From assembly GCA_002410925.1 (NCBI GenBank), contig DHPR01000033.1:122397-142396 (forward strand): a DNA stretch of 20,000 bases. The letters run 5' to 3'. Under the pieces are notes generated by a model, which saw nothing but the letters and a program-made list of their open reading frames with translations, did no database searches and was not told the origin of the DNA. Shown piece after piece: positions 3,705-19,848 of this stretch. Each line of letters starts with the position of its first letter. The first letter of the stretch is position 1. Source of the DNA: a bacterium UBP13_UBA5359. Lineage in GTDB: Bacteria; UBP13; UBA5359. The translations under genes and the position numbers were made by a program.

Positions 3705-4172
3705 ATGCATATAGCTCCTACCGAAATTCTGGAGATCGCCATAGCAATTGAAACAAATGGCGCTATATTCTATCGCCGTGCAGCGGATAGCACCGACGAT
3801 CCTGAGATACGAAAGCTTTGCCTGCGCCTGGCAGCAGAGGAGGACGATCATAGAGCCAAATTCGAACGTATTTACAGTCACGAAGGCATACCGCTGGATC
3901 TTTATGACGGAAACAGGGAAGCGCATGCATATATTCGTGCCCTGGCATCGTCACAAATTTGCGATGATGCTTCTTTGGATCTCTCATCTTCCGATAGATT
4001 GCTGGAAACCGCTATTATTTTAGAAAAGGAGAGCCTGCTTTATTATCAGTATCTAAAAGACGGCACGGCGCAAGAGAAGAATCAGAAGTTGTTGGAGGAG
4101 ATAATTGCTGAAGAACAGACCCATGTTATCAGGCTCAATGAACAGCTTGAAAGAGATAAAAAGAACCGATAG
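3705..4172 (+). CDS. Ferritin-like/rubrerythrin family di-iron protein (no rubredoxin domain)
   Basis: EILEIAIAIETNGAIFY...LAAEEDDH and AIILEKESLLYY...IIAEEQTH: two E...ExxH carboxylate/His motifs. Confidence 0.9.
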   Translation: MHIAPTEILEIAIAIETNGAIFYRRAADSTDDPEIRKLCLRLAAEEDDHRAKFERIYSHEGIPLDLYDGNREAHAYIRALASSQICDDASLDLSSSDRLLETAIILEKESLLYYQYLKDGTAQEKNQKLLEEIIAEEQTHVIRLNEQLERDKKNR

Positions 4173-4917
4173 GCGGCTAAAGCTGAAAGTCGTCGCCTGT
4201 GGAGTGCTGGCACGAGAGCTTTATCGCATAGCTGCCGCAGCAAAGAGTATAATTGATATACAGCTCTTGCCGCAGGGGTTGCACGATGAGCCGGATAAGC
4301 TGAGGCAGAGATTGCAGCAGCAGATAGATGCCTTGCCGGAAGAGGGTATGCACTATGACGCAATTCTTTTAGGATATGGCCTCTGTTGCAACGGACTGGC
4401 AGGTATTACGGCGCGAAATATTCCTCTTATCGTTCCGCGCGGTCATGATTGCATTACTATTCTGCTGGGTTCAAAGGAGACTTATAAGGATTATTTCGAT
4501 ACTCATGGCGGCGTTTACTGGTATTCTCCCGGATGGATTGAGCGCTCTCTTCAGCCCGGTAAAGAGCGGTATGAAAGAACTTTGCAGCAATATACGGAGA
4601 GATATGGTGAGGATAATGCTTTATATCTTATGGAAACAGAGAACAGCTGGCATAAGGAATACTCGCTGGCAACCTATATCGATTGGGAGATGCCTGATAG
4701 CGAGGAGTATAAGGGCTACGCCAGAGAATGTGCCGCCTATTTAGGGTGGGGATATGATGAGCTTCCCGGCGATAAAGGCTTGTTGCAACATCTTCTCAAC
4801 GGTGATTGGAATAACGATGAATTTTTAACGGTGCCGCCGGGAAGTATAATTGTTCCTAATGTAAACTCCCCGGGAATAGTTGCCTGTAAACCCTATAATA
4901 AAGAGGCAAAGAGCTGA
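4138..4917 (+). CDS. DUF1638-like Cys-containing protein (start uncertain)
   Basis: KVVACGVLAREL, LLPQGLHDEPDKLR, GYGLCCNGLAG, PRGHDCITILLGS and YWYSPGW match my recollection of DUF1638. Start could be ATG 4138 or TTG 4147; both overlap the upstream gene end. Confidence 0.8.
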   Translation: MNSLKEIKRTDRRLKLKVVACGVLARELYRIAAAAKSIIDIQLLPQGLHDEPDKLRQRLQQQIDALPEEGMHYDAILLGYGLCCNGLAGITARNIPLIVPRGHDCITILLGSKETYKDYFDTHGGVYWYSPGWIERSLQPGKERYERTLQQYTERYGEDNALYLMETENSWHKEYSLATYIDWEMPDSEEYKGYARECAAYLGWGYDELPGDKGLLQHLLNGDWNNDEFLTVPPGSIIVPNVNSPGIVACKPYNKEAKS

Positions 4918-8622: not shown

Positions 8623-9927
8623 TTGGCGATGCATGAAACATCCGGACTTCATTCAGAAATCGCTGTTATTGCCGCCATATATTTCTCTGCCGTCGGTGAG
8701 AAAGAAATCGATGAGGATATGGCTGAGCTGGACAGGTTGGCCGATACGGCCGGGGCATCGGTTGTTGCCAGAGTGACACAACGGCGCCAGAGTCCTGACT
8801 TGGCTTATTTTCTGGGCAAAGGCAAACTGGAGGAGCTGAAAGAGAGCGTTATTTCGGAAGGGGCCGATCTGGTAATCATCAACAATCAGCTTTCGCCGCT
8901 CCAGCAGCGCAATCTGGAGAACGCACTGGAAGTTAAGGTGATAGACAGAACAGCTCTGATTCTTGATATCTTTGCACAACGGGCCAGGACCAGGGAAGGT
9001 CAGTTGCAAGTTGAACTGGCGCAATTGAATTATCTTCTACCTCGCCTGGCCGGTAAGGGTATAGAGCTCTCACGGTTAGGAGGAGGTATCGGCACCAGAG
9101 GGCCTGGAGAGACTAAACTGGAAGCAGACAGGCGCCGTATAAGACGCCAAATCATCAGATTGGAAGAAGAGCTTGATAAGGTGCGAAAGCAGCGTTTGCT
9201 GCAGTCTCAACCGCGTCATGACGTTCCTGTGATGGTGACTGCGCTGGTAGGGTATACCAATGCCGGCAAATCAACTCTCTTCAATACGCTCACAGGAGCT
9301 GATGTCCTGACGGAGAACAGATTGTTTGCTACCTTGGATCCTACGCTCAGGCGTGTCAGATTGCCTAATGGACAGACTATAGTGCTGAGTGATACGGTAG
9401 GATTCATACGCAATCTGCCGCATAGTGTCGTAGCAGCATTCCGGGCTACTCTGGAAGAGGTGGTAGAGGCGGATATAATCATACATGTAGTGGATGCCTC
9501 CAATCCTCTATCGCATAAGCAAAGCGATGCGGTATACGAGGTTTTGGAAGAGCTGGGCGTGGCTGACAAGCCTATTATAACCGTGCTCAACAAGATGGAC
9601 CTGGTGGAGCATCCGCAGAGCCTTCAGCGCCTGGCAGATACGGCAGAGCGAACGGTAGCTCTCTCTGCCCTTAATGGAACAGGGTTGGATGATCTGCTGG
9701 ACGAGATTGTAGAAATTATGAATGAACGTCTGGCGGTTATCGAAGTAAGCTTGCCTTATAACAGGCTGGACATACTTTCACTGCTTTACGATACCGGCCA
9801 GGTGCTGGAGCGGCGCTATGATTCGGACGGCATATTTGTACGTGCTGAAGTGGATATGGTAGTAGCGGAAAGAATCAAGGAGTTTGTTAAAAGCAGAGTG
9901 AATTTGAGAGGAGACAGGGGACGGTAG
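8623..9927 (+). CDS. hflX: GTPase HflX (start TTG 8623 or ATG 8629)
   Basis: ILDIFAQRARTREGQLQVELAQL, GGGIGTRGPGETKLE, GYTNAGKST, LFATLDPT, DTVGFI, NKMD. Confidence 0.98.
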   Translation: MAMHETSGLHSEIAVIAAIYFSAVGEKEIDEDMAELDRLADTAGASVVARVTQRRQSPDLAYFLGKGKLEELKESVISEGADLVIINNQLSPLQQRNLENALEVKVIDRTALILDIFAQRARTREGQLQVELAQLNYLLPRLAGKGIELSRLGGGIGTRGPGETKLEADRRRIRRQIIRLEEELDKVRKQRLLQSQPRHDVPVMVTALVGYTNAGKSTLFNTLTGADVLTENRLFATLDPTLRRVRLPNGQTIVLSDTVGFIRNLPHSVVAAFRATLEEVVEADIIIHVVDASNPLSHKQSDAVYEVLEELGVADKPIITVLNKMDLVEHPQSLQRLADTAERTVALSALNGTGLDDLLDEIVEIMNERLAVIEVSLPYNRLDILSLLYDTGQVLERRYDSDGIFVRAEVDMVVAERIKEFVKSRVNLRGDRGR

Positions 9928-10064: not shown

Positions 10065-10265
10065 ATGAGAAGAGAGAAAATCGATGCCTATATCGTAACC
10101 GGAGTGGTTTCTGCGGCGGCAGGCATCCTAATAGCTTCCTATCTCTATTCAAGGCAGCGTAGTCAGGATCCTTTGCTGATTGCTGAGAAGATTGTCAAGG
10201 AATGCCGAGAGAAGATAGAGGAGATAGAGAAAGACCTGACAACAGTTAAAATCACCGAGTCATAG
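10065..10265 (+). CDS. Small hypothetical protein, N-terminal TM helix plus charged helical tail (66 aa)
   Basis: GAGGAG RBS before ATG 10065; hydrophobic YIVTGVVSAAAGILIASYLY followed by AEKIVKECREKIEEIEKDL. Confidence 0.7.
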   Translation: MRREKIDAYIVTGVVSAAAGILIASYLYSRQRSQDPLLIAEKIVKECREKIEEIEKDLTTVKITES

Positions 10266-11150
10266 ATCCTCCAGCGCTGCGCGTTGCTTCTCTTGTGAAA
10301 CATGAGTATATATTTGCGTTGTTGATATGGAGGCATGTCCCAGAGTATCTTGCACCAGGCGCAGGTCATTGCCGCTTTTACGATAAAGGATGGTGGCAAA
10401 GGTATGGCGTAGCTTATGAGGAGTTATATTCTCATGGCAAGAGATATAACCGCGTTCACAGGCCAAGTTAATATACTTGCGCAGCATATCTCTAATACCC
10501 TGGGGGGTAAAGCGGCAGCGTTTACGGCTGGTGAAGAGAGGAGAGGAGGGGCTTTTATCCTCCTTTTCCGCTAGATAAGCCTTTAAGGCCGAATGGGAGA
10601 TACGGTTCAAAGGTATAACTCTCTCCTTATTGCCCTTACCGGTGACTTTCAGAGTATCGCCGTGCAGGTCGCTTATATCAAGACTGACAAGCTCCTGCAC
10701 TCGCAGACCGGTGTTGAGAAAGATGAGTATTATAGCGGTATCTCGTTTGTTGCTGGTCAGCTCTTCAAGGCTGATCAGATGGTTTTTTTCTTTCTCCGCC
10801 AGATAGACAGGCGTTCTGTTCTTGGTCAGGCGGGGCAGCCTGACGTTGGCAGTAGGATTTTTCTCAACGATTTCTTCCTGAAAGAGATATTTGAAGAAGC
10901 TTTTGAGAGAGGCTATCTTACGGGCCACGGAGCTCATGGCATAGCCCTTCTCCTGCAGAAAGACGCTGTAAGCTCTGATCTCCGTAGATGACACCGTATT
11001 TACGGCGGGAATCCGCTTGCGAGCGGCTCTATACCAGAGGTAGAAAGTACGCAGGTCTATCTCATAGCCCTGACGAGTGTTGGGCGATTTGCCCTCACTG
11101 GCCAGATACATAGCAAAATCGTCGACGTAATCAAAGAAATCTGCTGCCAT
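10260..11150 (-). CDS. XerC/XerD-type tyrosine recombinase (296 aa)
   Basis: N-terminal SPNTRQGY and SSVARKIASLKSFFKYL; full catalytic set R (TGLRVQEL), K (GKGNKER), HxxR (PHKLRHTFAT), H and Y (LGHASISTTQIYTHV); CAGGAGG RBS. Confidence 0.95.
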   Translation of the reverse strand: MAADFFDYVDDFAMYLASEGKSPNTRQGYEIDLRTFYLWYRAARKRIPAVNTVSSTEIRAYSVFLQEKGYAMSSVARKIASLKSFFKYLFQEEIVEKNPTANVRLPRLTKNRTPVYLAEKEKNHLISLEELTSNKRDTAIILIFLNTGLRVQELVSLDISDLHGDTLKVTGKGNKERVIPLNRISHSALKAYLAEKEDKSPSSPLFTSRKRCRFTPQGIRDMLRKYINLACERGYISCHENITPHKLRHTFATILYRKSGNDLRLVQDTLGHASISTTQIYTHVSQEKQRAALEDL

Positions 11151-11170
11151 ACGGCTGCCTCCTGTTGAAT

Positions 11171-11179
11171 ATTATAGCA
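11171..11179 (-). promoter_or_regulatory. Extended -10 (TGCTATAAT) for the Xer recombinase gene
   Basis: Minus strand reads ...CTGCTATAATATTCAACAGGAGGCAGCCGTATG. Confidence 0.55.
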
Positions 11180-11224
11180 GGAAAAGCCTCTCTATGGCAG
11201 TATCTGACAAGGAATGATAGTATT

Positions 11225-12409
11225 ATGAATTTTCAATGGCTGCAACTGGCCGGCTTAACGCTGATGCATCTTCATGTTGATATGCTTGGAGGTATGCTGC
11301 CAGCCATATTGCCGGTAATTCGCCAAAACTATGATTTAAGTTTGTCGGCCACATTTACCATGCTAGCTGTTCTGAACCTTTCATGCAATGGTATTCAGCT
11401 GGCAATAGGGCATTTGCGAGCCTCAAGCCGGCAGCCGCTCTTTCTATTCCTCGGTATATCTCTTACCGCTGCTCTCTGTGTATTTGGATTGCTTCCGCGC
11501 GTTGACTATATCTTCCCTTTGCTGCTTATGCTGATGGTTATAGGTGGAAGCGGCGTGGCCATGATTCATCCAGAAGGGCTAAGGGCGGTTCATGCCCTGG
11601 ATCGACTCCCTTCATCCATTGCTACCGTTCTCTTTATGGTTGGCGGCAATCTCGGTTTTGCCGGCGGAGGGTATCTATCGGCATTACTGGTGAGCCGGTG
11701 GGGACTGGCCGGGCTTTTGCCCCTTCTTCTCATTGTGCCGTTAAGCCTGGCGGCTATGCGCCTGCTGCGTATCCGCCTCGCGGTAGAAGATAAGAGCAGG
11801 AGAGAGGAAGAGCCTGTCGATGAAGAATTTCAACCGGCAGGGGTTCCCTTTGCCCGTCTCCTGCTTCTGTCTATTCCGGTAGCTACGGCCGCGACTCTGT
11901 TGGCCGGTTATCTACCTACTCATTTGCACGAACTGGGCTTTTCTATCTCATTCGGCGGACTGTCGACACTGGTTTTCGGCGCCAGTGGCGTGGCAGGATC
12001 GATAGTCTGGGGGATGCTGGCCCGGAACAGAGGGGACTACTACGCTTTGCGCGTTTCTCTGCTGGCAGGCATACCCTTTCTGGCGGCATATCTCTTTACT
12101 ATGCAATACCGGCCGGCTATCTGTCTGCTGGGCATGGCCGGCTTCTGTCTGATGGCCGCTTTTCCGCTGATAGTCTCTATAGCCAGATATGCAAGCGGGT
12201 ACAATCTTGGCCGTCGTATGGCTCTGATCGTGGGGGGATCATGGGGCGCAGCCAGTATAATTATGATGCTCACAGGTGCTTCAGCGAATGCAATAGGCGT
12301 GCGTCTGATACTCATGCTGACATTTCTTATCTATGCCGTGGCTGCCGGCATACTGATGTTTATGCTTCCTGTAAAGGCACCCTATGCGGCCAGAATCGAG
12401 GAAGTGTGA
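11225..12409 (+). CDS. MFS transporter, Fsr (fosmidomycin resistance)-like
   Basis: About 12 hydrophobic segments; HLHVDMLGGMLPAILP, HPEG and FMVGGNLGFAGG typical of Fsr-like MFS proteins. Confidence 0.85.
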   Translation: MNFQWLQLAGLTLMHLHVDMLGGMLPAILPVIRQNYDLSLSATFTMLAVLNLSCNGIQLAIGHLRASSRQPLFLFLGISLTAALCVFGLLPRVDYIFPLLLMLMVIGGSGVAMIHPEGLRAVHALDRLPSSIATVLFMVGGNLGFAGGGYLSALLVSRWGLAGLLPLLLIVPLSLAAMRLLRIRLAVEDKSRREEEPVDEEFQPAGVPFARLLLLSIPVATAATLLAGYLPTHLHELGFSISFGGLSTLVFGASGVAGSIVWGMLARNRGDYYALRVSLLAGIPFLAAYLFTMQYRPAICLLGMAGFCLMAAFPLIVSIARYASGYNLGRRMALIVGGSWGAASIIMMLTGASANAIGVRLILMLTFLIYAVAAGILMFMLPVKAPYAARIEEV

Positions 12410-12477
12410 CAAGATATCCAATTTATGTGACTCTTTATCGTATCTCCCCGTGCATTGTGAGAGAAGCCGAATTATTC

Positions 12478-12515
12478 CTCCAATCTTGCTTAACAGTTAT
12501 TAAGCAAGATTGGAG
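12478..12515. repeat. Perfect 16-bp inverted repeat with 6-bp spacer (dif-like recombination site or bidirectional terminator)
   Basis: CTCCAATCTTGCTTAA-CAGTTA-TTAAGCAAGATTGGAG, lying between convergent genes. The repeat is directly seen; its function is uncertain. Confidence 0.9.
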
Positions 12516-12547
12516 AGGACTGATTTCTTCCATCTGAGGAATTTATA

Positions 12548-12745
12548 TCAGTAAGCGCTTAAATTACGGCGCCAATACTGGCCATTGGGCGCTGCGCATT
12601 GACTTAGCATTGCTCCATGCGACTGCCATTCGACATGCCCATCTGCAAAGCCCAGGTTGAGACCATCGTTATGCCGGTATGTCATACCGTAAATAACGCC
12701 ATTCTTCATCGCGTCGGCGCCGTTTACAGGCACGCAGTTATTCCA
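12548..12745 (-). pseudogene. 3' remnant of a prepilin-type/DUF1559-like gene with H-X9-DG motif
   Basis: YRHNDGLNLGFADGHVEW has H-X9-DG spacing. The frame runs into the AraC paralog sequence and closes there; no N-terminal prepilin cleavage motif or RBS. Confidence 0.8.
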
Positions 12746-13230
12746 ACTCGCCTGATCAAAAGAATAAGCCTTAAAAGCTCGCTATACACCATCTCAACCC
12801 AGTAGGATTGCTTGCTTTCCTTCTCTGCGATTATGTTCCTAGCAATAACCTCTGTCACTGCCGCCTCTCGCTCCGATAATGCAAAAAGACGCGGAAAATC
12901 GTCGGGAAGATCAACTAAATAGCTCTCTTCATCCAAAAAATCGGCAGCAAAACAGATGGAATACTTCTCAACGTATGGAGTAAGCTCGATGTCTATACGG
13001 TGAAGTTCGTCAGGTCTTATGACGAGTAGAGAATTCTTGTGAAATGAGTAGTTGTGATCGTGAATGAAGTAAGCTCCCTGTCCTCTCTTGATATATTGTA
13101 TTTCTATTTCCCGGTGATATGTCAGAGAACTGGGCAGAGAAGGCTTCCCACAGACATACAATATCTTTACAGGACACTCTGTCGATGATTTGAAAATTGG
13201 ATCACCTATTAGCTTGCTGGCATCGCTCAA
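12724..13230 (-). pseudogene. Truncated AraC paralog (cupin sensor domain only, HTH lost)
   Basis: Collinear with the N-terminal ~165 aa of 13304..14158 (YHxExEIQYIKRGxGAYFI, YSFHKNSLLVIRPDExHRI, SELLRLILLIRR), then diverges and stops. Confidence 0.85.
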
Positions 13231-13269
13231 TGTATTATGACCTCGGCAGAAGAAACATCGCGTAGTTGT

Positions 13270-13298
13270 ATAATAACCTGGTGCAAGGCTACCAGCAA
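13270..13298 (-). promoter_or_regulatory. Putative sigma70 promoter for the truncated AraC paralog
   Basis: Minus strand TTGCTG, 17-nt spacer, TATTAT. Confidence 0.45.
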
Positions 13299-13303
13299 TG
13301 TGA

Positions 13304-14158
13304 TTATTTGCTCATACGATATGATAATTTGCGGTATTCGGAAGGAGTAAGGCCTGTGACCATTTTAAAGCTACGATTGAACAGGGCGAAATCCGGTTGC
13401 CCCACATCTCGGGCAATGGCGGCAACTTTGAGATCAGGCTCATCTTCCAATAATCTTTTAGCCTCGACTATTCTACGCTGAATCAAATACTGTTTGAAAT
13501 TCAGGCCATTACACTTCTTGAACAGTCGGGAGAGATGACTTGAAGAAACGGAAAAGAGCTCTGCTGTCTCACTTAATGTCAATTCTTGCCTGAAGTTAGT
13601 TTCTATGTAGTTCATAATATCGTTTATTAAGGGGTTTTTCTCTCTTTGTTGTTTATGGCGTAAAGCAATCCGCCTGATCAAAAGAATAAGTCTTAAAAGC
13701 TCACTGCGGATGACCTCTAGCCAATAAGGTTGTTTGTCCTCCTTCTCATCTATCATGTTTCTGATAATAATCTTTACGGCAGTTGCTTCTCTCTCTGTCA
13801 GTTCCAACAAACGAGGAAAACCCTCAGGCAGATAAGCTAAACGACATTGTTCTTTCAAAAAGGCGATAGCAAAGCAAAATGAGTATTTCTCAACATATGG
13901 GGAATGCTCGATATTAATACGATGAATTTCATCAGGCCTTATAACGAGCAGAGAGTTCTTATGAAACGAATAATCATTGCCCTGTATAAAATAGGCACCC
14001 CGCCCCCTCTTAATATATTGAATTTCCATCTCTTGATGATATGCAAATGGCCCCGGGGAAGGAGGTACACCATGAACATATAATATATTTACGGGACACT
14101 TTACAGATGCTTTGAATACTGGATTGCATATAGAATTGTTGATACTGTCTAGCTGCAT
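13304..14158 (-). CDS. AraC family transcriptional regulator
   Basis: N-terminal cupin; C-terminal double HTH (YIETNFRQELTLSETA...HLSRLFKK...RRIVEAKRLL...FNRSFKMVTGLTPSEYRK); GAGGT RBS. Confidence 0.96.
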   Translation of the reverse strand: MQLDSINNSICNPVFKASVKCPVNILYVHGVPPSPGPFAYHQEMEIQYIKRGRGAYFIQGNDYSFHKNSLLVIRPDEIHRINIEHSPYVEKYSFCFAIAFLKEQCRLAYLPEGFPRLLELTEREATAVKIIIRNMIDEKEDKQPYWLEVIRSELLRLILLIRRIALRHKQQREKNPLINDIMNYIETNFRQELTLSETAELFSVSSSHLSRLFKKCNGLNFKQYLIQRRIVEAKRLLEDEPDLKVAAIARDVGQPDFALFNRSFKMVTGLTPSEYRKLSYRMSK

Positions 14159-14319
14159 TACGACCTCGAGTCAGAAAGTAACCCTGCAGGGGTAAAACCT
14201 ATAAAACTTATTCGCTATTGCACCTCGAATAACCTTCAATTTCTCTGTTTAACCTCCCTGTCTTATGGTGCGCAGCCTGCTCGGCATCAGCAAAGAAATT
14301 GAATGGGGCAAAGAAGAGC

Positions 14320-14391
14320 GGCGAATCATTCTACGATGTAAGACATGTGACGATAACTGACGGCTATCGGTATTCCCTCTTCCTGAAAAGC
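14320..14391 (-). repeat. Decayed 72-nt copy of an internal part of the DegT gene (15148..15219)
   Basis: Reads AFQEEGIPIAVSYRHMSYIVE*FA versus ALQEEGIPIAASYRHLPHTMEWFA; 61/72 nt identical by manual alignment; TGG->TGA. Confidence 0.9.
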
Positions 14392-14393
14392 TA

Positions 14394-14898
14394 CTATGCC
14401 TTTAAGTGCGATAGTAATATATCTCCAACTATGCCCCGAAAGCTCCATGAGTGATTGTAATTGTTCGAATAGTCGAGCTGATGTGTCCGGTTGGTTAAAA
14501 CAATTACATATCTATCCTGCTCCGGATCAATCCATATTGACTGGCCTGTCCAGCCGCTGTGGCCTATAGCTGCATACGACATGGTTTGAGGACGGTCTCC
14601 AGCCAGTGCTTCTGAAGATTTAAGCATTCTCCAGCCAAACGCATGCAATGGGAAAGTCGGATAGCTGCAGGCATGCATGAGCCATAAGCGTGACTTGCTA
14701 TGAAGAACCTCTTCCTTGCTACCGAAAAGCATCATTTGGCAGAAACGGGCAAGGTCTTCAACCGTTGAGAAGAGGCCCGCATTGCCAACAGGCCCAAAGG
14801 AAATCAACTGATGTGCTTCTGCCGGCAGCAACCACAATGCCGTGCAGAAGCCCGTCTTCTACTGCATTAATACATGCGGCCTCCAGCGACCTGTACAT
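14394..14898 (-). pseudogene. Serine hydrolase (beta-lactamase class C/PBP family) with large internal deletion
   Basis: RBS and ATG 14898 give MYRSLEAACINAVEDGLLHGIVVAAGRSTSVDFLWAC. This joins out of frame at ~14788-14795 to the C-terminal PVGNAGLFSTVEDLARFCQM...GHSGWTGQSIWIDPE...VLTNRTH. The catalytic SxxK/YxN region is absent. Confidence 0.85.
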
Positions 14899-14943
14899 AA
14901 TATCTTCCTTCCAGATAACGCATGCTCTCTGCCTTTATCTCAT

Positions 14944-16209
14944 CTAGAAGGCCAGAATCTCCTCCACCTTATTAAGGGCCTTTAAGGTATCGGCAATCTC
15001 CTCATCTCCCCATCCCTCGTGGACGAAAAGATTGAACTGCTTATCCGTAACGGCTACGGCATTGGGGCAGGTGAAGGCTCTGTCGACATCGCCGGTATAG
15101 TGAGGCGATGTCCAGGGATGACCGCTGCTGCCGAATACCTGCCTCTTGGCGAACCATTCCATGGTGTGAGGCAAATGACGATAACTGGCGGCTATCGGTA
15201 TTCCCTCTTCCTGCAGAGCTTTGCAGTAAGTCTCTTTATTGCAGCTAGAGACCTCGCTGTTGAACTCCAACCGCATGAACCAGTAGCTTGATTCCGCTCC
15301 GGGTAATATATCGGGAGCTGTTATCAGCTTCAGCTTCTCTACGCCTTGCCTTATAGCAGCAGCTACATATTGACGGCGCTTGATTATATCGGGCAGCTTC
15401 TTTAGCTGTACTCTGCCTATAGCTGCCGACAGATCGTTAAGGTTAAAGTTAAGAGCACCTATGCAGTTGGTGCTCCCAGCGGGCAAACCGAAGGGCTTGC
15501 CTCTGTCCGAGCACCACCTGCTTCTCTGATACAGATGTCCATTTTGGGTGTAGACTACACCGCCCTGTCCTCCGGTACAGTGGTGCTTGCCGAACATGGT
15601 GGAGAAGGCGGCTATATCTCCAAAGGTGCCTACCTTCTCTCCATTGAGCGTAGCTCCATGGGCCTGAGCACAGTCTTCTATCACGGGTATGCCGTGCTTG
15701 TGAGCTAAGGCCATAACCCCTTTCATATCAACGGGCTCTCCTCCGATATGGGCTACTATGATGGCACCGGTAAGAGGGGATATCAGCTCTGCTATCTGCT
15801 CCGGCCCTGTGTTGTAACTGCCAGGGGCGGTATCGGCTATTATGGGTATGCAGTTGCACATTACTATGGGCATCATACCGCCGGGATCGGTTATGGGGCT
15901 GACTATAACCTCTGTAAAGGGTTCGGGATTAACAGCACGCAGAGCTGTATATACGGCCGTAGTGCCGGAGTTGACGGCATCGGCATAGCCGCCTCCCATA
16001 TACTCTGCAAACTCGAGGCAGTAGGCCTCTTCCTCTGGCCCGTTATAGCCGAAGGCGTTGCCCGTGGCTATGGCTTCATCAAAGAGGGCATTGACGGCTG
16101 CTCTCTCCTCTTCTCCCAGCAGCCCACGCCCTGGCCAGGGTTTGGTTCTGACCTTTGCACCGCCATATATGGCCAGTTTAAATAATTCCTTATCGGTGTT
16201 CATTTCCAT
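14944..16209 (-). CDS. DegT/DnrJ/EryC1/StrS family PLP aminotransferase
   Basis: KLAIYGGAKVR, VNSGTTAV, IEDCAQAHGA, FSTMFGKHHCTGGQGG (PLP Lys region), AAIGRVQLKKL; AGGAGG RBS 11 nt before ATG 16209. Confidence 0.95.
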   Translation of the reverse strand: MEMNTDKELFKLAIYGGAKVRTKPWPGRGLLGEEERAAVNALFDEAIATGNAFGYNGPEEEAYCLEFAEYMGGGYADAVNSGTTAVYTALRAVNPEPFTEVIVSPITDPGGMMPIVMCNCIPIIADTAPGSYNTGPEQIAELISPLTGAIIVAHIGGEPVDMKGVMALAHKHGIPVIEDCAQAHGATLNGEKVGTFGDIAAFSTMFGKHHCTGGQGGVVYTQNGHLYQRSRWCSDRGKPFGLPAGSTNCIGALNFNLNDLSAAIGRVQLKKLPDIIKRRQYVAAAIRQGVEKLKLITAPDILPGAESSYWFMRLEFNSEVSSCNKETYCKALQEEGIPIAASYRHLPHTMEWFAKRQVFGSSGHPWTSPHYTGDVDRAFTCPNAVAVTDKQFNLFVHEGWGDEEIADTLKALNKVEEILAF

Positions 16210-16294
16210 AGCTTCAGAATCCTCCTGTTTTTCACAGCTTGCTCTTTGCAAGCAACGTCACTTTCATTCTTTAAATATAGATCTCTTACTCTGA

Positions 16295-16323
16295 ATACTA
16301 TCAAATGCCCGATATATAAACAA
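16295..16323 (-). promoter_or_regulatory. Putative sigma70 promoter for the DegT gene
   Basis: Minus strand TTGTTT, 17-nt spacer, TAGTAT with an extended TG, in an AT-rich stretch. Confidence 0.4.
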
Positions 16324-16383
16324 TTCGATTTCTTGTGCTCTCTATATGAATTTTTGCGCTCTTCAGCAGAATTTAACAAGTAA

Positions 16384-16653
16384 TCACTCTTCAACAACAA
16401 TACCCCCACGGCGTGAGGGACCGAACACCGGATCTTTATCACCGCTAAGAACCTCCCGGCCTTTAGCCTGAAACTCCGGACCAGCGAACCAAATATAGCA
16501 TTTAATGCCACCGCTTTTATTTTCAACTTCCATAAAATCATATCCTTTAGGACAGATAAACTTATCAGCTACACTGTCCCGGAGAACATCCAGGCAAGCA
16601 TCTTCTTGAGTATTATTACAGCAGAGACTACGGAATATTGCTTTAGCGTTACT
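16384..16653 (-). pseudogene. Start-less 89-codon open frame; probable 3' remnant of an unknown gene (or a 49-aa protein from ATG 16533)
   Basis: SNAKAIFRSLCCNNTQEDACLDVLRDSVADKFICPKGYDFMEVENKSGGIKCYIWFAGPEFQAKGREVLSGDKDPVFGPSRRGGIVVEE*; protein-like composition, no family recognised. Confidence 0.4.
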
Positions 16654-16677
16654 TTATGCGGTGGGCAATAAAATTAT

Positions 16678-17282
16678 TTACAGCCCTATTCCGGCAGAAG
16701 AGGCCCATTGCGACAAGCCGTTCAATATCATATCCGCTCCTATGGCGGCTATGAAGAGTCCCGTTATTCTTATCAACGGTCCCAGCAGCTTCCATGAATC
16801 GAGAAATTTTCCCAATCCCATAGAGTAGACCATTATAAAGAGATTTACGCCTGTTGCCAGGAGCAAAGAGAGCGTTACTACCAGCGGCCCATAAGCTGCT
16901 GTTTTGGATATGGCTGCAGTGATTGTGGCCGGGCCTGCTATCAACGGCATAGCGATGGGAACGCAAGAGATATCCTGTAAGCTTATGCCGGATTTCATCT
17001 CAAAAAACTCTCCACTTTGCAAGGCATGCAGTCCAACAATAAAAAGAACAGCGCCACCGGCCAGTTGCAGCGAATAGAGCTCAATCTGAAAAAGATTACG
17101 CACTTGGCTCGTAAGGCCAGCCGTCGTAATTCGGATTTATTCATAGAATCTCGCAGAGAGAAGCATATGCCTATCTTGCTGACGGGATTGATGAGTACTA
17201 TAAAGAGGAGAAAACTGCGAAAGAGTTCATCTATGAATCCTTCACCGGCTAATTCACCGGCTAATTGTGCTAAAGCAAACAT
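16678..17282 (-). pseudogene. MarC family membrane protein, frameshifted by an internal deletion
   Basis: N-part FLLFIVLINPVSKI...RRLALRA and C-part LFQIELYSLQLAGGAVLF...VPIAMPLIAGPATIT are in different frames with a junction near 17104; the helix normally between them is missing. Confidence 0.85.
17241..17266. repeat. 12-nt tandem duplication (TTCACCGGCTAA x2; encodes LAGE-LAGE)
   Basis: ttcaccggctaa ttcaccggctaa tt, in the 5' end of the MarC gene. Confidence 0.9.
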
Positions 17283-17337: not shown

Positions 17338-19848
17338 CTATTTTCCTACAAAGATGCGTTGAACACGAGGGCCAAGCCTGGCCAAAAGTTCGTAAACTAT
17401 GGTATCAGAGAGATCGGCGGCAATTTCCGGGCGCAAAGAGTATCCATTATGTTTGCCGTATATGAGAACATCCGAGCCTATGCGAACATTATCTATGTCG
17501 TTGATATCTATCATGGCTGAATCCATGGAGATCCGGCCTATCAGATCGGCTTTTCTTCCGTTTACCAAAACATATCCTCTGTTCGACAGATTAAGCGGTA
17601 ATCCGTCATGGTATCCCATTGGAATGACTCCGATAGTAAATCCATCATATGGCACAACAAAGGTACTGCTGTAGCCGATTCTGTCGCCGCTCATATATTT
17701 ACGAATATCTGCTATTCGGCTAAGCAATGTTACGGCCGAATTCAGTTTCAGCTGCTCTTCCATCGCCGGTCTTGGGTAAAGACCGTAAAGCCCTAACCCG
17801 ATACGAACCATATCGAAGCGTGCTTCCGGAAAACGAATGCTGCCGGCAGTGGCGGCTGCATGGCAGGTAAGATCTCTCAGACCCAGCTCATACATTTGAG
17901 TCGCAGCTCTCTCAAAGCGCCGGATCTGGGTGCGGGTGAATTCATCTTCAGCAGGATCATCAGCGCAGGCAAAATGCGTTGCCAGGCCGGTAATTCGCAG
18001 ATTACGATGCGACATAACCTCTTTTGCAAGATCTGAAAGCTCTTCGGGCTTGATTCCCAGACGCCCCATGCCGGTATCTACTTTCAGATGAACATCTATC
18101 TTTTGCTCGCTCTCTTCTGCTGCTTTTGCCAATGAAGCTGCTAATTCGGCCGAGTAAATTACCGGGGTCAGCCGATGCCTAACGGCTTTATATACCTCAT
18201 CCTGCGTACATAGCATCACCAGTATAGGCAGATCAACTCCGGCGGTTCTAAGGGTCATGCCTTCATCAGCCGTCGATACGCCCAGCAGATCAAGGTCCAA
18301 TTCCTGTAGTTCGCGAGAGAGGCTTACCAGATCACTGCCGTATGCCATAGCCTTGACCATTCCGAGGATTTTACACTTAGGCCCTACCAGGCGGCGAAAT
18401 TGAGCTATATTCTCTGCTAAAGCCTCGACATCGACAATTAAGCGATTGGAGGCCATGGCATCGATGATCTCATGCGCAGCCTTATCTATGCCGGCACTGC
18501 TTGCACCTTTGAAAAGGACTTTATCACCATTATGCAGGTACGGCCTTAGATCGTTTGCCAGCCTATCGGTATCTTGACAGCGAAACACACGCCCTTCAGG
18601 GTAAAGAGCTTTATAGGCCTCTTCAGTGGCATCAAGCTCCTCCCCTCCTATCAGCACCAGTAACCCTATGCCATACCGGGCAGCCATTTCGCCTATATGG
18701 TAATGCTCGCGCTGCTCCAGTTGGCCGAGATGCTGCATACCTCCAAAGACGAAGATGCTGCGATCGCCCTGACGTGTTAAATGTGACAGGGAGCGTAGTG
18801 CCGACTGCACAGAGATGGGGTCGGCACTGCAGGAATCGTTAATGAGTGTTATGCCTGCCGGAGAGCGCCATATTTCCATTCTGGTGTGGGCCGGTTCATG
18901 AAACTGTAGGGCGTGAACGATATTCTTTTCATCGACACCCAATAAAAAAGCGGCGCATATGACGGCCTCAACGTCCGATACCATCTCTGCAGAGAAGGTT
19001 CGGAGCAGAATATTATGAATAGCGCCGGATGGGAAGCTGATATCCAGTATTGTTCCGTTAACAGCGGCCTTTCGATCACAAATAAACGGTAGCTTGCTAT
19101 TCTCGCTGCCGTAGCGATATATTTTACACTGCAGGCCACCAAGAAATTCATCTGCATAGCGGCAATCATGCGGAATCAACACCCAGCCGCCGGGATCGAT
19201 ATTTTTAAAGAGCTCCAGCTTCTCTCGAGCGATATTCTTACGAGTGCCGAAACCTGCTATATGCGCCATGCCTACATTAGTCAGGATGCCGCAATCCGGC
19301 TTCAATATCTCTTCCAGAGCGGCCATCTCACCGAGCTGAGAAACGCCGGCTTCAATAACTGCCATATCAATTTTGCCGGGCAGGCGAAGGACGGATAGAG
19401 GAACACCCAGCTGGCTGTTGTAGCTGCCCCGGCTTCCGCCGGCCAGGTAGGAGTATTGAAGAGCTTGTACCAGCGCATCTTTCACAATCGTCTTGCCATT
19501 GCTGCCGGTGACGGCTACCAGGCGCCCGGAAATTTTTCTTCTCCACCAGGCAGCCAGGCGCTGTAGCGCTGTCAGGGTATTCTTTACGATTATTATAGGC
19601 TTATCGCCGATTTGTGCTTGAATATCTTTATAATTGGAAGAGATAACGGCAGCAACAGCCCCGTTCCGAAAGGCATCTTCAACGAAATCATGGCCGTCAG
19701 TATGGATACCTTGGAGAGAAAAGAATAGAGCGCGGTTGCCTATCCGCCTGGAATCAATGGTTACGGTTTGTATCTTCTCATCGGTAAATATGCCCAGCAA
19801 TTTGCCTTCAATGATATCCGCCAGTTCGGTCAAAGAGATTGAATCCAT
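17338..19848 (-). CDS. alr: MurF-like ligase / alanine racemase fusion (836 aa)
   Basis: N-terminal Mur ligase fold (IDSRR, DGHDF, AVTGSNGKTIVK, SYNSQLGVPLS, RME); C-terminal Alr (MVKAMAYGS PLP Lys, HLKVDTGMGRLG, THFACAD, IGYSSTF, GYHDG, GRISMD, TIVYELL). Confidence 0.95.
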   Translation of the reverse strand: MDSISLTELADIIEGKLLGIFTDEKIQTVTIDSRRIGNRALFFSLQGIHTDGHDFVEDAFRNGAVAAVISSNYKDIQAQIGDKPIIIVKNTLTALQRLAAWWRRKISGRLVAVTGSNGKTIVKDALVQALQYSYLAGGSRGSYNSQLGVPLSVLRLPGKIDMAVIEAGVSQLGEMAALEEILKPDCGILTNVGMAHIAGFGTRKNIAREKLELFKNIDPGGWVLIPHDCRYADEFLGGLQCKIYRYGSENSKLPFICDRKAAVNGTILDISFPSGAIHNILLRTFSAEMVSDVEAVICAAFLLGVDEKNIVHALQFHEPAHTRMEIWRSPAGITLINDSCSADPISVQSALRSLSHLTRQGDRSIFVFGGMQHLGQLEQREHYHIGEMAARYGIGLLVLIGGEELDATEEAYKALYPEGRVFRCQDTDRLANDLRPYLHNGDKVLFKGASSAGIDKAAHEIIDAMASNRLIVDVEALAENIAQFRRLVGPKCKILGMVKAMAYGSDLVSLSRELQELDLDLLGVSTADEGMTLRTAGVDLPILVMLCTQDEVYKAVRHRLTPVIYSAELAASLAKAAEESEQKIDVHLKVDTGMGRLGIKPEELSDLAKEVMSHRNLRITGLATHFACADDPAEDEFTRTQIRRFERAATQMYELGLRDLTCHAAATAGSIRFPEARFDMVRIGLGLYGLYPRPAMEEQLKLNSAVTLLSRIADIRKYMSGDRIGYSSTFVVPYDGFTIGVIPMGYHDGLPLNLSNRGYVLVNGRKADLIGRISMDSAMIDINDIDNVRIGSDVLIYGKHNGYSLRPEIAADLSDTIVYELLARLGPRVQRIFVGK

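Follow-up and report, generated by a model that had tools for sequence, protein, structure and literature searches.

A symmetric palindrome at the replication terminus of a UBP13 bacterium as a putative dif site of a single-recombinase Xer system

What is the role of a long perfect palindrome that lies between convergent genes, close to a gene for an Xer-type tyrosine recombinase? The question is raised by a 20,000-nucleotide stretch of DNA from the bacterium UBP13_UBA5359 (hereafter the window; positions 122397–142396 of the 499,903-base contig C13 of genome assembly G000), in which the recombinase gene, xer, and a perfect inverted repeat are separated by a single gene for a transporter of the MFS family. 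We propose that the palindrome serves a single-recombinase Xer system as its putative chromosome dimer-resolution (dif) site. This reading is likely because of the position of the palindrome at the replication terminus, its uniqueness within the genome, its conservation among relatives, the presence of a single Xer gene and the intact active site of the encoded protein.

The G000 assembly comprises 2.25 Mb in 40 unordered contigs and is 98.4% complete. In the comparison set the phylum consists of three species of one genus: G000, G001 (99% complete) and G002 (87% complete, with 5% contamination).

The palindrome and the replication terminus

The whole repeat reads CTCCAATCTTGCTTAA-CAGTTA-TTAAGCAAGATTGGAG. 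Its two arms (12478–12493 and 12500–12515) are 16 nucleotides (nt) long and 100% complementary, and they enclose an asymmetric centre of 6 bp. A first-pass annotation of the window, made from the sequence alone, had reported this 16-6-16 structure with its CAGTTA centre, and both the sequence and a repeat scan confirmed it (Table 1). Within the repeat, the Xer-type 11-6-11 core is ATCTTGCTTAA-CAGTTA-TTAAGCAAGAT. The site is poor in G+C, with 6 G or C per 16 letters in the arms and 28.6% G+C in the 28-mer, compared with 49.0% in the genome. It is intergenic in G000, being located 68 nt past the stop codon of the MFS gene and 32 nt ahead of the next open reading frame (ORF). G000, G001 and G002 each contain one copy.

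The cumulative GC skew of contig C13 peaks on the final base pair of the MFS gene, at a distance of 70 nt from the repeat. The mapping against the skew terminus suggested in the first-pass annotation thus favours a dif site. The GC skew of C13 is about +0.1 over the first 135 kb and about −0.1 over the remaining 365 kb. Among the 26 contigs of at least 15 kb, the others are nearly monotonic in skew, and there is one other large switch, a minimum at C40:297969, 1.3 kb from a dnaA match (C40:296155–296637). With one maximum at the repeat and one minimum beside dnaA, the assembly thus has one terminus-type and one origin-type switch. Contigs C7, C23 and C27 show skew irregularities near their ends, and none of these has a palindrome with at least 10 pairs nearby among those listed.

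Perfect 11-6-11 palindromes occur 42 times in the genome; by chance, any of them would come to lie 110 nt or less from the skew maximum with a probability of about 0.004. The sign of the skew also changes at the site in the two relatives, from +0.119 to −0.067 in G001 and from +0.177 to −0.081 in G002. Strand-skewed 8-mers derived from the remainder of the genome (205 words with at least 85% strand bias, a bias that is confounded with gene orientation) flip between window positions 12029 and 14254. Both the G001 contig and a 61-kb contig from metagenome run X3 cross the site with the same left and right neighbours, and the junction is therefore not an assembly artefact.

Sites of the dif type have been recognised as non-coding, close to the cumulative skew maximum, palindromic, low in G+C and endowed with a conserved XerD arm (Carnoy and Roten, 2009; PMC2731167). 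Four of these features, as worded there, are found here: the site is non-coding, lies at the skew maximum, has 11 of 11 palindromic pairs (14 in the relatives, 16 in G000) and is low in G+C. Proteobacterial dif sites, by the figures given in the same source, have 16.3 ± 3.0 of their 28 letters in the palindrome (PMC2731167). The right arm shares 8 of 11 letters with the XerD arm of Xanthomonas campestris printed in PMC2731167, a comparison made with this one arm.

Table 1. Positions, strands and basis of assignment of the features discussed (window coordinates).
Feature	Position	Strand	Basis
hflX, last conserved housekeeping gene before xer	8623–9927	+	HflX domains
xer, Xer-type tyrosine recombinase, 296 aa	10260–11150	-	Pfam
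MFS transporter gene (MFS_1) between xer and site	11165–12409	+	Pfam
Cumulative GC-skew maximum of contig C13 (terminus signal)	12408 (= C13:134804)		skew analysis
Perfect 16-6-16 inverted repeat, proposed dif site	12478–12515		repeat scan
Cross-species conserved 14-6-14 part	12480–12513		comparison with G001, G002
11-6-11 Xer-type core	12483–12510		sequence
Asymmetric 6-bp centre CAGTTA	12494–12499		sequence
Variable, partly decayed accessory DNA	12516–16704	-	domains, relatives' alignments
MarC-family gene split into two ORFs (141, 95 aa)	16678–17282	-	Pfam

The recombinase and the proposed reaction

The start codon of xer is 1328 nt from the repeat, in agreement with the 1.3 kb noted in the first-pass annotation, and the MFS gene is the only gene between them. 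The encoded protein matches the Phage_integrase family (PF00589) with 127.3–128.5 bits (cut-off 27.1) and has a SAM-like N domain. The catalytic residues R150, K175, H245, R248, H272 and Y281 are all present; they are invariant in an alignment of 35 sequences and align to those of XerD (1a0p) and XerA (4a8e, 5hxy).

Scored with the NCBIfam models, the protein reached 226.5 bits for XerC (TIGR02224; E 4.5e-67; cut-off 335.15), 219.5 bits for XerD (TIGR02225; cut-off 329.6), 197.6 bits for XerA (NF040815; cut-off 220) and 136.1 bits for XerS (NF003462; cut-off 267). It shows no preference between the XerC and XerD models. Each of 10 comparison genomes, on the other hand, encodes one XerC-best and one XerD-best protein, 20 proteins in all at 285–381 bits; the ten XerC-best proteins score 285–345 bits and the ten that are XerD-best, or nearly so, 309–381 bits.

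A profile search with PF00589 returned four matches in G000, namely xer, a 397-aa integrase and two fragments on contig C33. The integrase directly adjoins a tRNA-Thr gene, and none of the Xer models gives it more than 71 bits. In the 98.4% complete assembly this search revealed no XerC/XerD pair, and the earlier suggestion of a single Xer thus stands. As the sole Xer-type enzyme of the genome, the protein leaves no other candidate for dimer resolution. G001 has one full-length PF00589 match and three fragments. The genome encodes an FtsK that includes a gamma domain, at about C13:54–55 kb.

In a maximum-likelihood tree of 28 proteins (arbitrary root), the window Xer falls into one clade with two close relatives (identities of 96% and 80%). 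This clade joins, with a support of 100/99, four Clostridia proteins named XerC by NCBI together with protein P0003 (43% identity), and this group stands apart from canonical XerC and XerD. Outside the genus, no protein of more than 43% identity was found among 5.8 billion clustered proteins. A metagenome scan with the Xer protein, for which our statements cover the best 80 loci, recovered two close relatives only: L046, which is the G001 species (99.9% identical), and L047, a 1.4-kb locus of 89% identity without the site. All other loci are at most 40% identical.

How might such a system work? Recombination between sister chromosomes would generate a circular dimer, in which two direct copies of the site would meet at the closing septum. 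One Xer protomer would bind each of the identical 11–14-bp arms, giving four protomers per synapse, and the catalytic tyrosines would cleave where the 6-bp centre meets the arms. Strand exchange, in two successive pairs, would then convert the dimer into monomers. Since the arms are identical, direction would come from the non-palindromic centre CAGTTA only, as in loxP. FtsK, here with a gamma domain, would probably deliver the sites and switch the reaction on. Judged from sequence, this is very probably a one-enzyme form of the known Xer system, which combines a symmetric site, linkage between gene and site, and an ordinary XerC/D-like protein.

Conservation of the site and alternative roles

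The unit shared by the three species is the 14-6-14 palindrome CCAATCTTGCTTAA-N6-TTAAGCAAGATTGG. Its 14-nt arms are identical in G000, G001 and G002, while the outer two pairs of G000 vary; the 16-nt arms of the first-pass annotation are accordingly perfect in G000 but conserved at only 14 of 16 positions in the relatives. The core is present in both other species of the genus, and it is the sequence and the 6-nt spacing that are kept, not mere pairing around a loop of variable length. G000 and G001 share the centre CAGTTA; that of G002, CAGATA, differs by a single change. The orientation of the centre relative to the flanking replichores is the same in all three. Neighbouring coding DNA is 89–90% identical to that of G001 and 73–78% identical to that of G002; at 78% identity, 33 matching letters out of 34 correspond to a p of about 0.002. 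The DNA adjoining the site cannot be aligned on either side among the three species. In one of the other two species the site and xer are 3.6 kb apart on the same contig, and in the other they are located on separate contigs. The unit is therefore kept letter for letter while its surroundings are replaced, which makes it look like a protein recognition site rather than a gene-borne terminator.

The replacement of the surroundings can be followed in detail. In G000, the left neighbour is the MFS gene and the right side carries an H-X9-DG fragment, AraC fragments and accessory genes. In G001, 2.4 kb with LemA and M48 peptidase genes follow the MFS gene on the left, the stop codon of the peptidase gene falling inside the left arm; on the right, the sequence rejoins the window at 14390, 57 nt past the site. 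G002 has a laminin-G gene on the left and, on the right, an intact MarC gene (L040:866–1513, 215 aa) directly beside the site, with its stop codon 5 nt from the palindrome; here the window is rejoined at 16705, 35 nt past the site. The X3 contig, which is about 96% identical to the window, represents a fourth arrangement with its joint at 12513: the MFS gene lies directly on the left as in G000, and on the right 12513 is connected to 14390 by 57 letters as in G001, with further rearrangements beyond. Compared with G001 and the X3 contig, G000 has an extra 1.9 kb on the right side. A contig from a fermentation metagenome (run X4) has only 12480–12511 in common with the window and is flanked by unlike sequence on the left and right.

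Unlike DNA extends for at least 255 nt on each side of the site in the X4 contig, and the two 30-letter flanks contain a short direct repeat. This contig may come from another relative or from an element that carries a mimic of the site.

Insertions and deletions (indels) thus occur within about 20–60 nt of the site on both sides. The flanks are indel hot spots, consistent with general terminus plasticity and with occasional Xer-mediated capture. The first-pass annotation had considered an integration hotspot: the indel-prone flanks agree with this, but there is no second copy of the site, and the idea of an island bounded by two sites is therefore unsupported.

Several observations weigh against the assignment as a dif site. 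The comparison covers three species and two metagenome contigs, a single genus-level group. The palindrome forms a strong hairpin between convergent genes, with folding energies of −31.4 and −31.9 kcal/mol on the two strands (z −5.9 and −5.2). Perfect hairpins of this size are no rarity in the genome: a scan gave 181 rows with arms of at least 12 nt (several rows per place), and at least two dozen places with perfect arms of at least 16 nt are among the matches listed. The repeat alone therefore proves little, and it is position and conservation that carry weight. Half-sites are not enriched, as 45 places match with at most one mismatch compared with 13–84 for ten shuffled 11-mers. The Xer protein scores below all curated Xer equivalog cut-offs. 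A second Xer might be hidden in an assembly gap, given a completeness of 98.4%, and G002 has a further recombinase frame of 311 aa (121.6 bits), among several further recombinases. From the strand-skewed 8-mers, no specific FtsK-orienting word could be named. Finally, because the contigs are unordered, the site cannot be placed at an angle of 180 degrees to oriC.

The hairpin invites the question of whether the repeat serves chiefly as a bidirectional intrinsic terminator or an RNA-stabilising structure, whose location at the terminus merely follows from gene convergence. Convergent 3′ ends surround the site in all three genomes (68 nt after the MFS stop codon, with the M48 stop codon inside its left arm, and 5 nt from the MarC stop codon), and folding is strong on both strands. 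However, the flanking genes differ while the 28 arm letters remain unchanged, with zero compensatory pair changes. An element that depends on structure only should drift, and a terminator as the main role is therefore very unlikely. The sequence of the hairpin points in the same direction: as the first-pass annotation had remarked of the missing U-tract, no T-run follows the stem on either strand, and the site is missing from the 32 terminator-like sites found by a scan of the window. Its stem is AT-rich near the loop, whereas the other long perfect hairpins are mostly rich in G+C and carry A and T runs. A side role of the hairpin in transcription may nevertheless exist.

Would the palindrome rather be an attachment or cassette-capture site for mobile DNA, with the neighbouring recombinase as the integrase for that traffic? 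The indels close to the site on both sides, and the X4 contig with the core in another context, would fit such a role. Yet the window and the G001 and G002 loci contain no second or degenerate copy with up to 7 arm mismatches, and none of the inserted genes is of phage, plasmid or transposon type. The recombinase belongs to the conserved hflX-xer-MFS block, outside the variable DNA, and if this only Xer-type enzyme served mobile DNA, dimer resolution would be without a candidate. We regard this role as highly improbable. Mobile elements that hitch-hike at dif (IMEX) would be compatible with a dif site; in the same three loci, there is no dif-like copy at a far end and no extra half-site with at most one mismatch. 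A further candidate role, binding of another protein, either as an operator (for example for the AraC-family genes) or as a replication fork barrier, seems extremely improbable to us. Palindromes are typical operators, AraC-family genes lie 0.2–1.6 kb to the right in G000, and fork traps are found in terminus regions. The AraC genes, however, are absent beside the site in G001, G002 and the X3 contig, where the site is unchanged, and the site lies at gene 3′ ends and not in a promoter region. As for a fork barrier, a search for fork-trap proteins found no RTP or Tus family match in the genome, and such traps usually consist of several polar copies, whereas this site is single.

Known Xer systems, other palindromes and neighbouring genes

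How does the putative dif module compare with Xer systems described before? Single-recombinase systems are known, namely XerS, XerH and XerA (reviewed in PMC5357621; Kono et al., PMC3025954) and XerL (PMC9765430). The first-pass annotation had suggested an undescribed single-Xer module with a palindromic dif: the lone Xer and the palindromic site stand, but single-recombinase systems, and a symmetric dif in the case of XerL, are already on record (PMC9765430).

XerL of the Legionellales (Legionella pneumophila, Coxiella burnetii; Nicholson et al., 2022; PMC9765430) is similar in that one recombinase acts on a dif at the GC-skew inflection with low G+C. As described there, the flanking genes of this dif vary too, and its arms are uninterrupted perfect inverted repeats of 10 bp in Legionella and 12 bp in Coxiella. 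According to the description in PMC9765430, this perfect dyad symmetry (10, 12 bp) distinguishes the Legionellales sites, while other dif sites, including those of single recombinases, are symmetric only in part. The perfect arms are longer here (14 bp conserved) than in the XerL dif, and XerL is set apart by its own description: it is not detectable by sequence as an XerC/D homologue (PMC9765430), whereas the window Xer clearly is one. Moreover, xerL is more than 400 kb from dif in Legionella (PMC9765430), as against a gene–site distance of 1.3–3.6 kb here.

XerS/difSL of streptococci and lactococci is likewise a lone recombinase linked to a terminus site, with FtsK present, in the accounts given in PMC1914069, PMC2965235 and PMC5357621. 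The window Xer differs from it in score (136 bits against a cut-off of 267) and length (296 aa against a model of 360 positions), and difSL is described as an atypical site of 31 bp (PMC5357621), while the window site is 11-6-11 and perfectly symmetric. XerH/difH of Helicobacter and Campylobacter also combines a single Xer with a gene-linked dif at the terminus, as reported in PMC5241119 and PMC3325230; the window Xer, however, matches XerH (5jjv_A) with only 72 bits over residues 81–289, and XerH is longer, with a chain of 363 residues. Archaeal XerA resembles the window Xer in being a lone recombinase of about the same size, with a 28-bp site of 11-6-11 layout (as summarised in PMC5357621). 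Among the PDB matches of the window Xer, the XerA structures 4a8e and 5hxy rank second and third, with 117 and 112 bits. In the summary of PMC5357621, XerA is archaeal and FtsK-independent, whereas the host here is bacterial and has FtsK with a gamma domain.

The best PDB match of the window Xer is E. coli XerD (126 bits). The XerC/XerD-dif system (in E. coli; CodV/RipX in B. subtilis) shares with the window module the protein superfamily, the 11-6-11 layout with inner TAA/TTA, the terminus position and the low G+C. It differs in the use of two proteins instead of one and in arms that are partly symmetric instead of identical. Two identical arms served by one tyrosine recombinase, with direction coming from an asymmetric spacer only, are also found in Cre/loxP of phage P1. 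Cre/loxP is a phage/plasmid system with a 13-8-13 site, without a terminus position or FtsK control.

No description of a system like this in this lineage or in Clostridia was found in the full-text literature, subscription journals being outside its coverage. A symmetric, gene-linked dif with an XerC/D-like enzyme, absent from the literature searched, may be widespread. We tentatively suggest that the module is one representative of a widespread, unpublished class that pairs a lone, sub-threshold XerC/D-like recombinase with a gene-linked, fully symmetric dif, whose 6-bp centre alone gives direction. Possibly, this class would embrace the Clostridia clade named XerC by NCBI, the present phylum and other uncultured lineages (L052, L082, L084).

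If this suggestion holds, binding of the same protein to both arms would make the site unusually permissive to foreign DNA and would explain the turnover of genes within tens of bases. As a probable dif site, the module would provide a terminus marker and a candidate dimer-resolution system for a deep uncultured lineage. Symmetric dif sites have been reported as a peculiarity of the Legionellales, and the present case suggests that they recur together with ordinary XerC/D-like proteins. It also raises the question of how the order of strand exchange and the control by FtsK are set when one protein binds both arms. In practical terms, the site could mark the replichore boundary in checks of binning and assembly, and a 34-bp site with a small recombinase would be a compact candidate recombination tool.

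Palindromes elsewhere were inspected as well. Three metagenome loci (L052:7913–7940, L082:4388–4415 and L084:7313–7340) contain a perfect AT-rich 11-6-11 palindrome, [C/A]TTATACAAAA-N6-TTTTGTATAA[G/T], 60–370 nt upstream of Xer-like genes (218–226 bits on the XerC model). The arms are identical, though the proteins are only 55% identical (L052 versus L082 and L084), and they enclose different centres within different flanks. All three loci show a weakly positive GC skew on the left and a negative one on the right. These loci look like a second lineage of xer-linked symmetric dif modules. Palindromes with 10 of 11 pairs were seen in L050 (7922–7949; ATTGCGCTAAA-TAACCA-TTTCGCGCAAT) and in L054 and L066 (49–76 and 278–305; AGTGCGTAAAA-TAATAA-TTTTACGCACA), each 60–80 nt upstream of a sub-threshold Xer-like gene, in loci that are short or one-sided.

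Other candidates were rejected. A palindrome with a similar centre in G000 itself (C14:1995–2022; GTATTATACAA-TAGTTA-TTATATAATAC; 10 of 11 pairs) was dismissed as a dif candidate, being in a promoter region with an operator-like context; it is part of a longer palindrome that precedes a regulator-like ORF on a contig of 2.9 kb. In L051, L060 and L100, the palindromes close to xer carry A and T runs and are terminator-like. Pattern scans of public genome and viral contigs, which allowed spacers of 4–9, returned four genome stretches, namely the G001 and G002 records and one record each from Caedibacter and a cyanobacterium, the latter two being unrelated palindromes with spacers of 8 and 5. The three viral stretches are likewise unrelated; they are 11-6-11 palindromes set in different flanks. 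Neither scan turned up a mimic of the site on a phage or plasmid.

The genes around the site were assigned by their domains, which confirmed the division seen in the first-pass annotation into housekeeping genes on the left and fragmented accessory genes on the right, from 12548 onwards. The left flank encodes mutL, miaA, an isocitrate/isopropylmalate (icd-type) dehydrogenase, dapF, an aminotransferase and hflX. The three species share a collinear hflX-xer-MFS block, at 89–90% identity in G001 and 75–78% in G002 (contig C356), so the MFS gene adjoins xer in G001 and G002 too. The MFS gene is a bystander. The leading-strand genes of the left replichore end with its stop codon. Also within the housekeeping left flank, a DUF1638 gene (4105–4917, + strand) overlaps the end of a rubrerythrin-like ORF (3705–4172, + strand).

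To the right, the accessory DNA holds an H-X9-DG fragment, an AraC N-terminal fragment, an AraC gene, a beta-lactamase-family C-terminal fragment and a DegT aminotransferase gene, and part of it is missing from the relatives. The H-X9-DG fragment is a 61-aa ORF (12548–12733, − strand) with an H-X9-DG prepilin-type C-terminal motif (23 bits). Several other contigs of metagenome run X2 match 12569–12746 alone, so this ORF belongs to a repeated gene family and is a likely assembly break point. A 73-nt direct repeat (D1, 85% identity) at 14320–14392 was copied from 15148–15220, a piece of the DegT aminotransferase gene; the copy lies in the spacer upstream of the beta-lactamase-family fragment and records a rearrangement in this decaying flank. 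Further to the right, an 836-aa ORF (17338–19848, − strand) combines a three-domain, MurF-like Mur ligase with a complete alanine racemase. This fusion is kept in G002, where the corresponding ORF (L040:1589–4132, − strand) encodes 847 aa.

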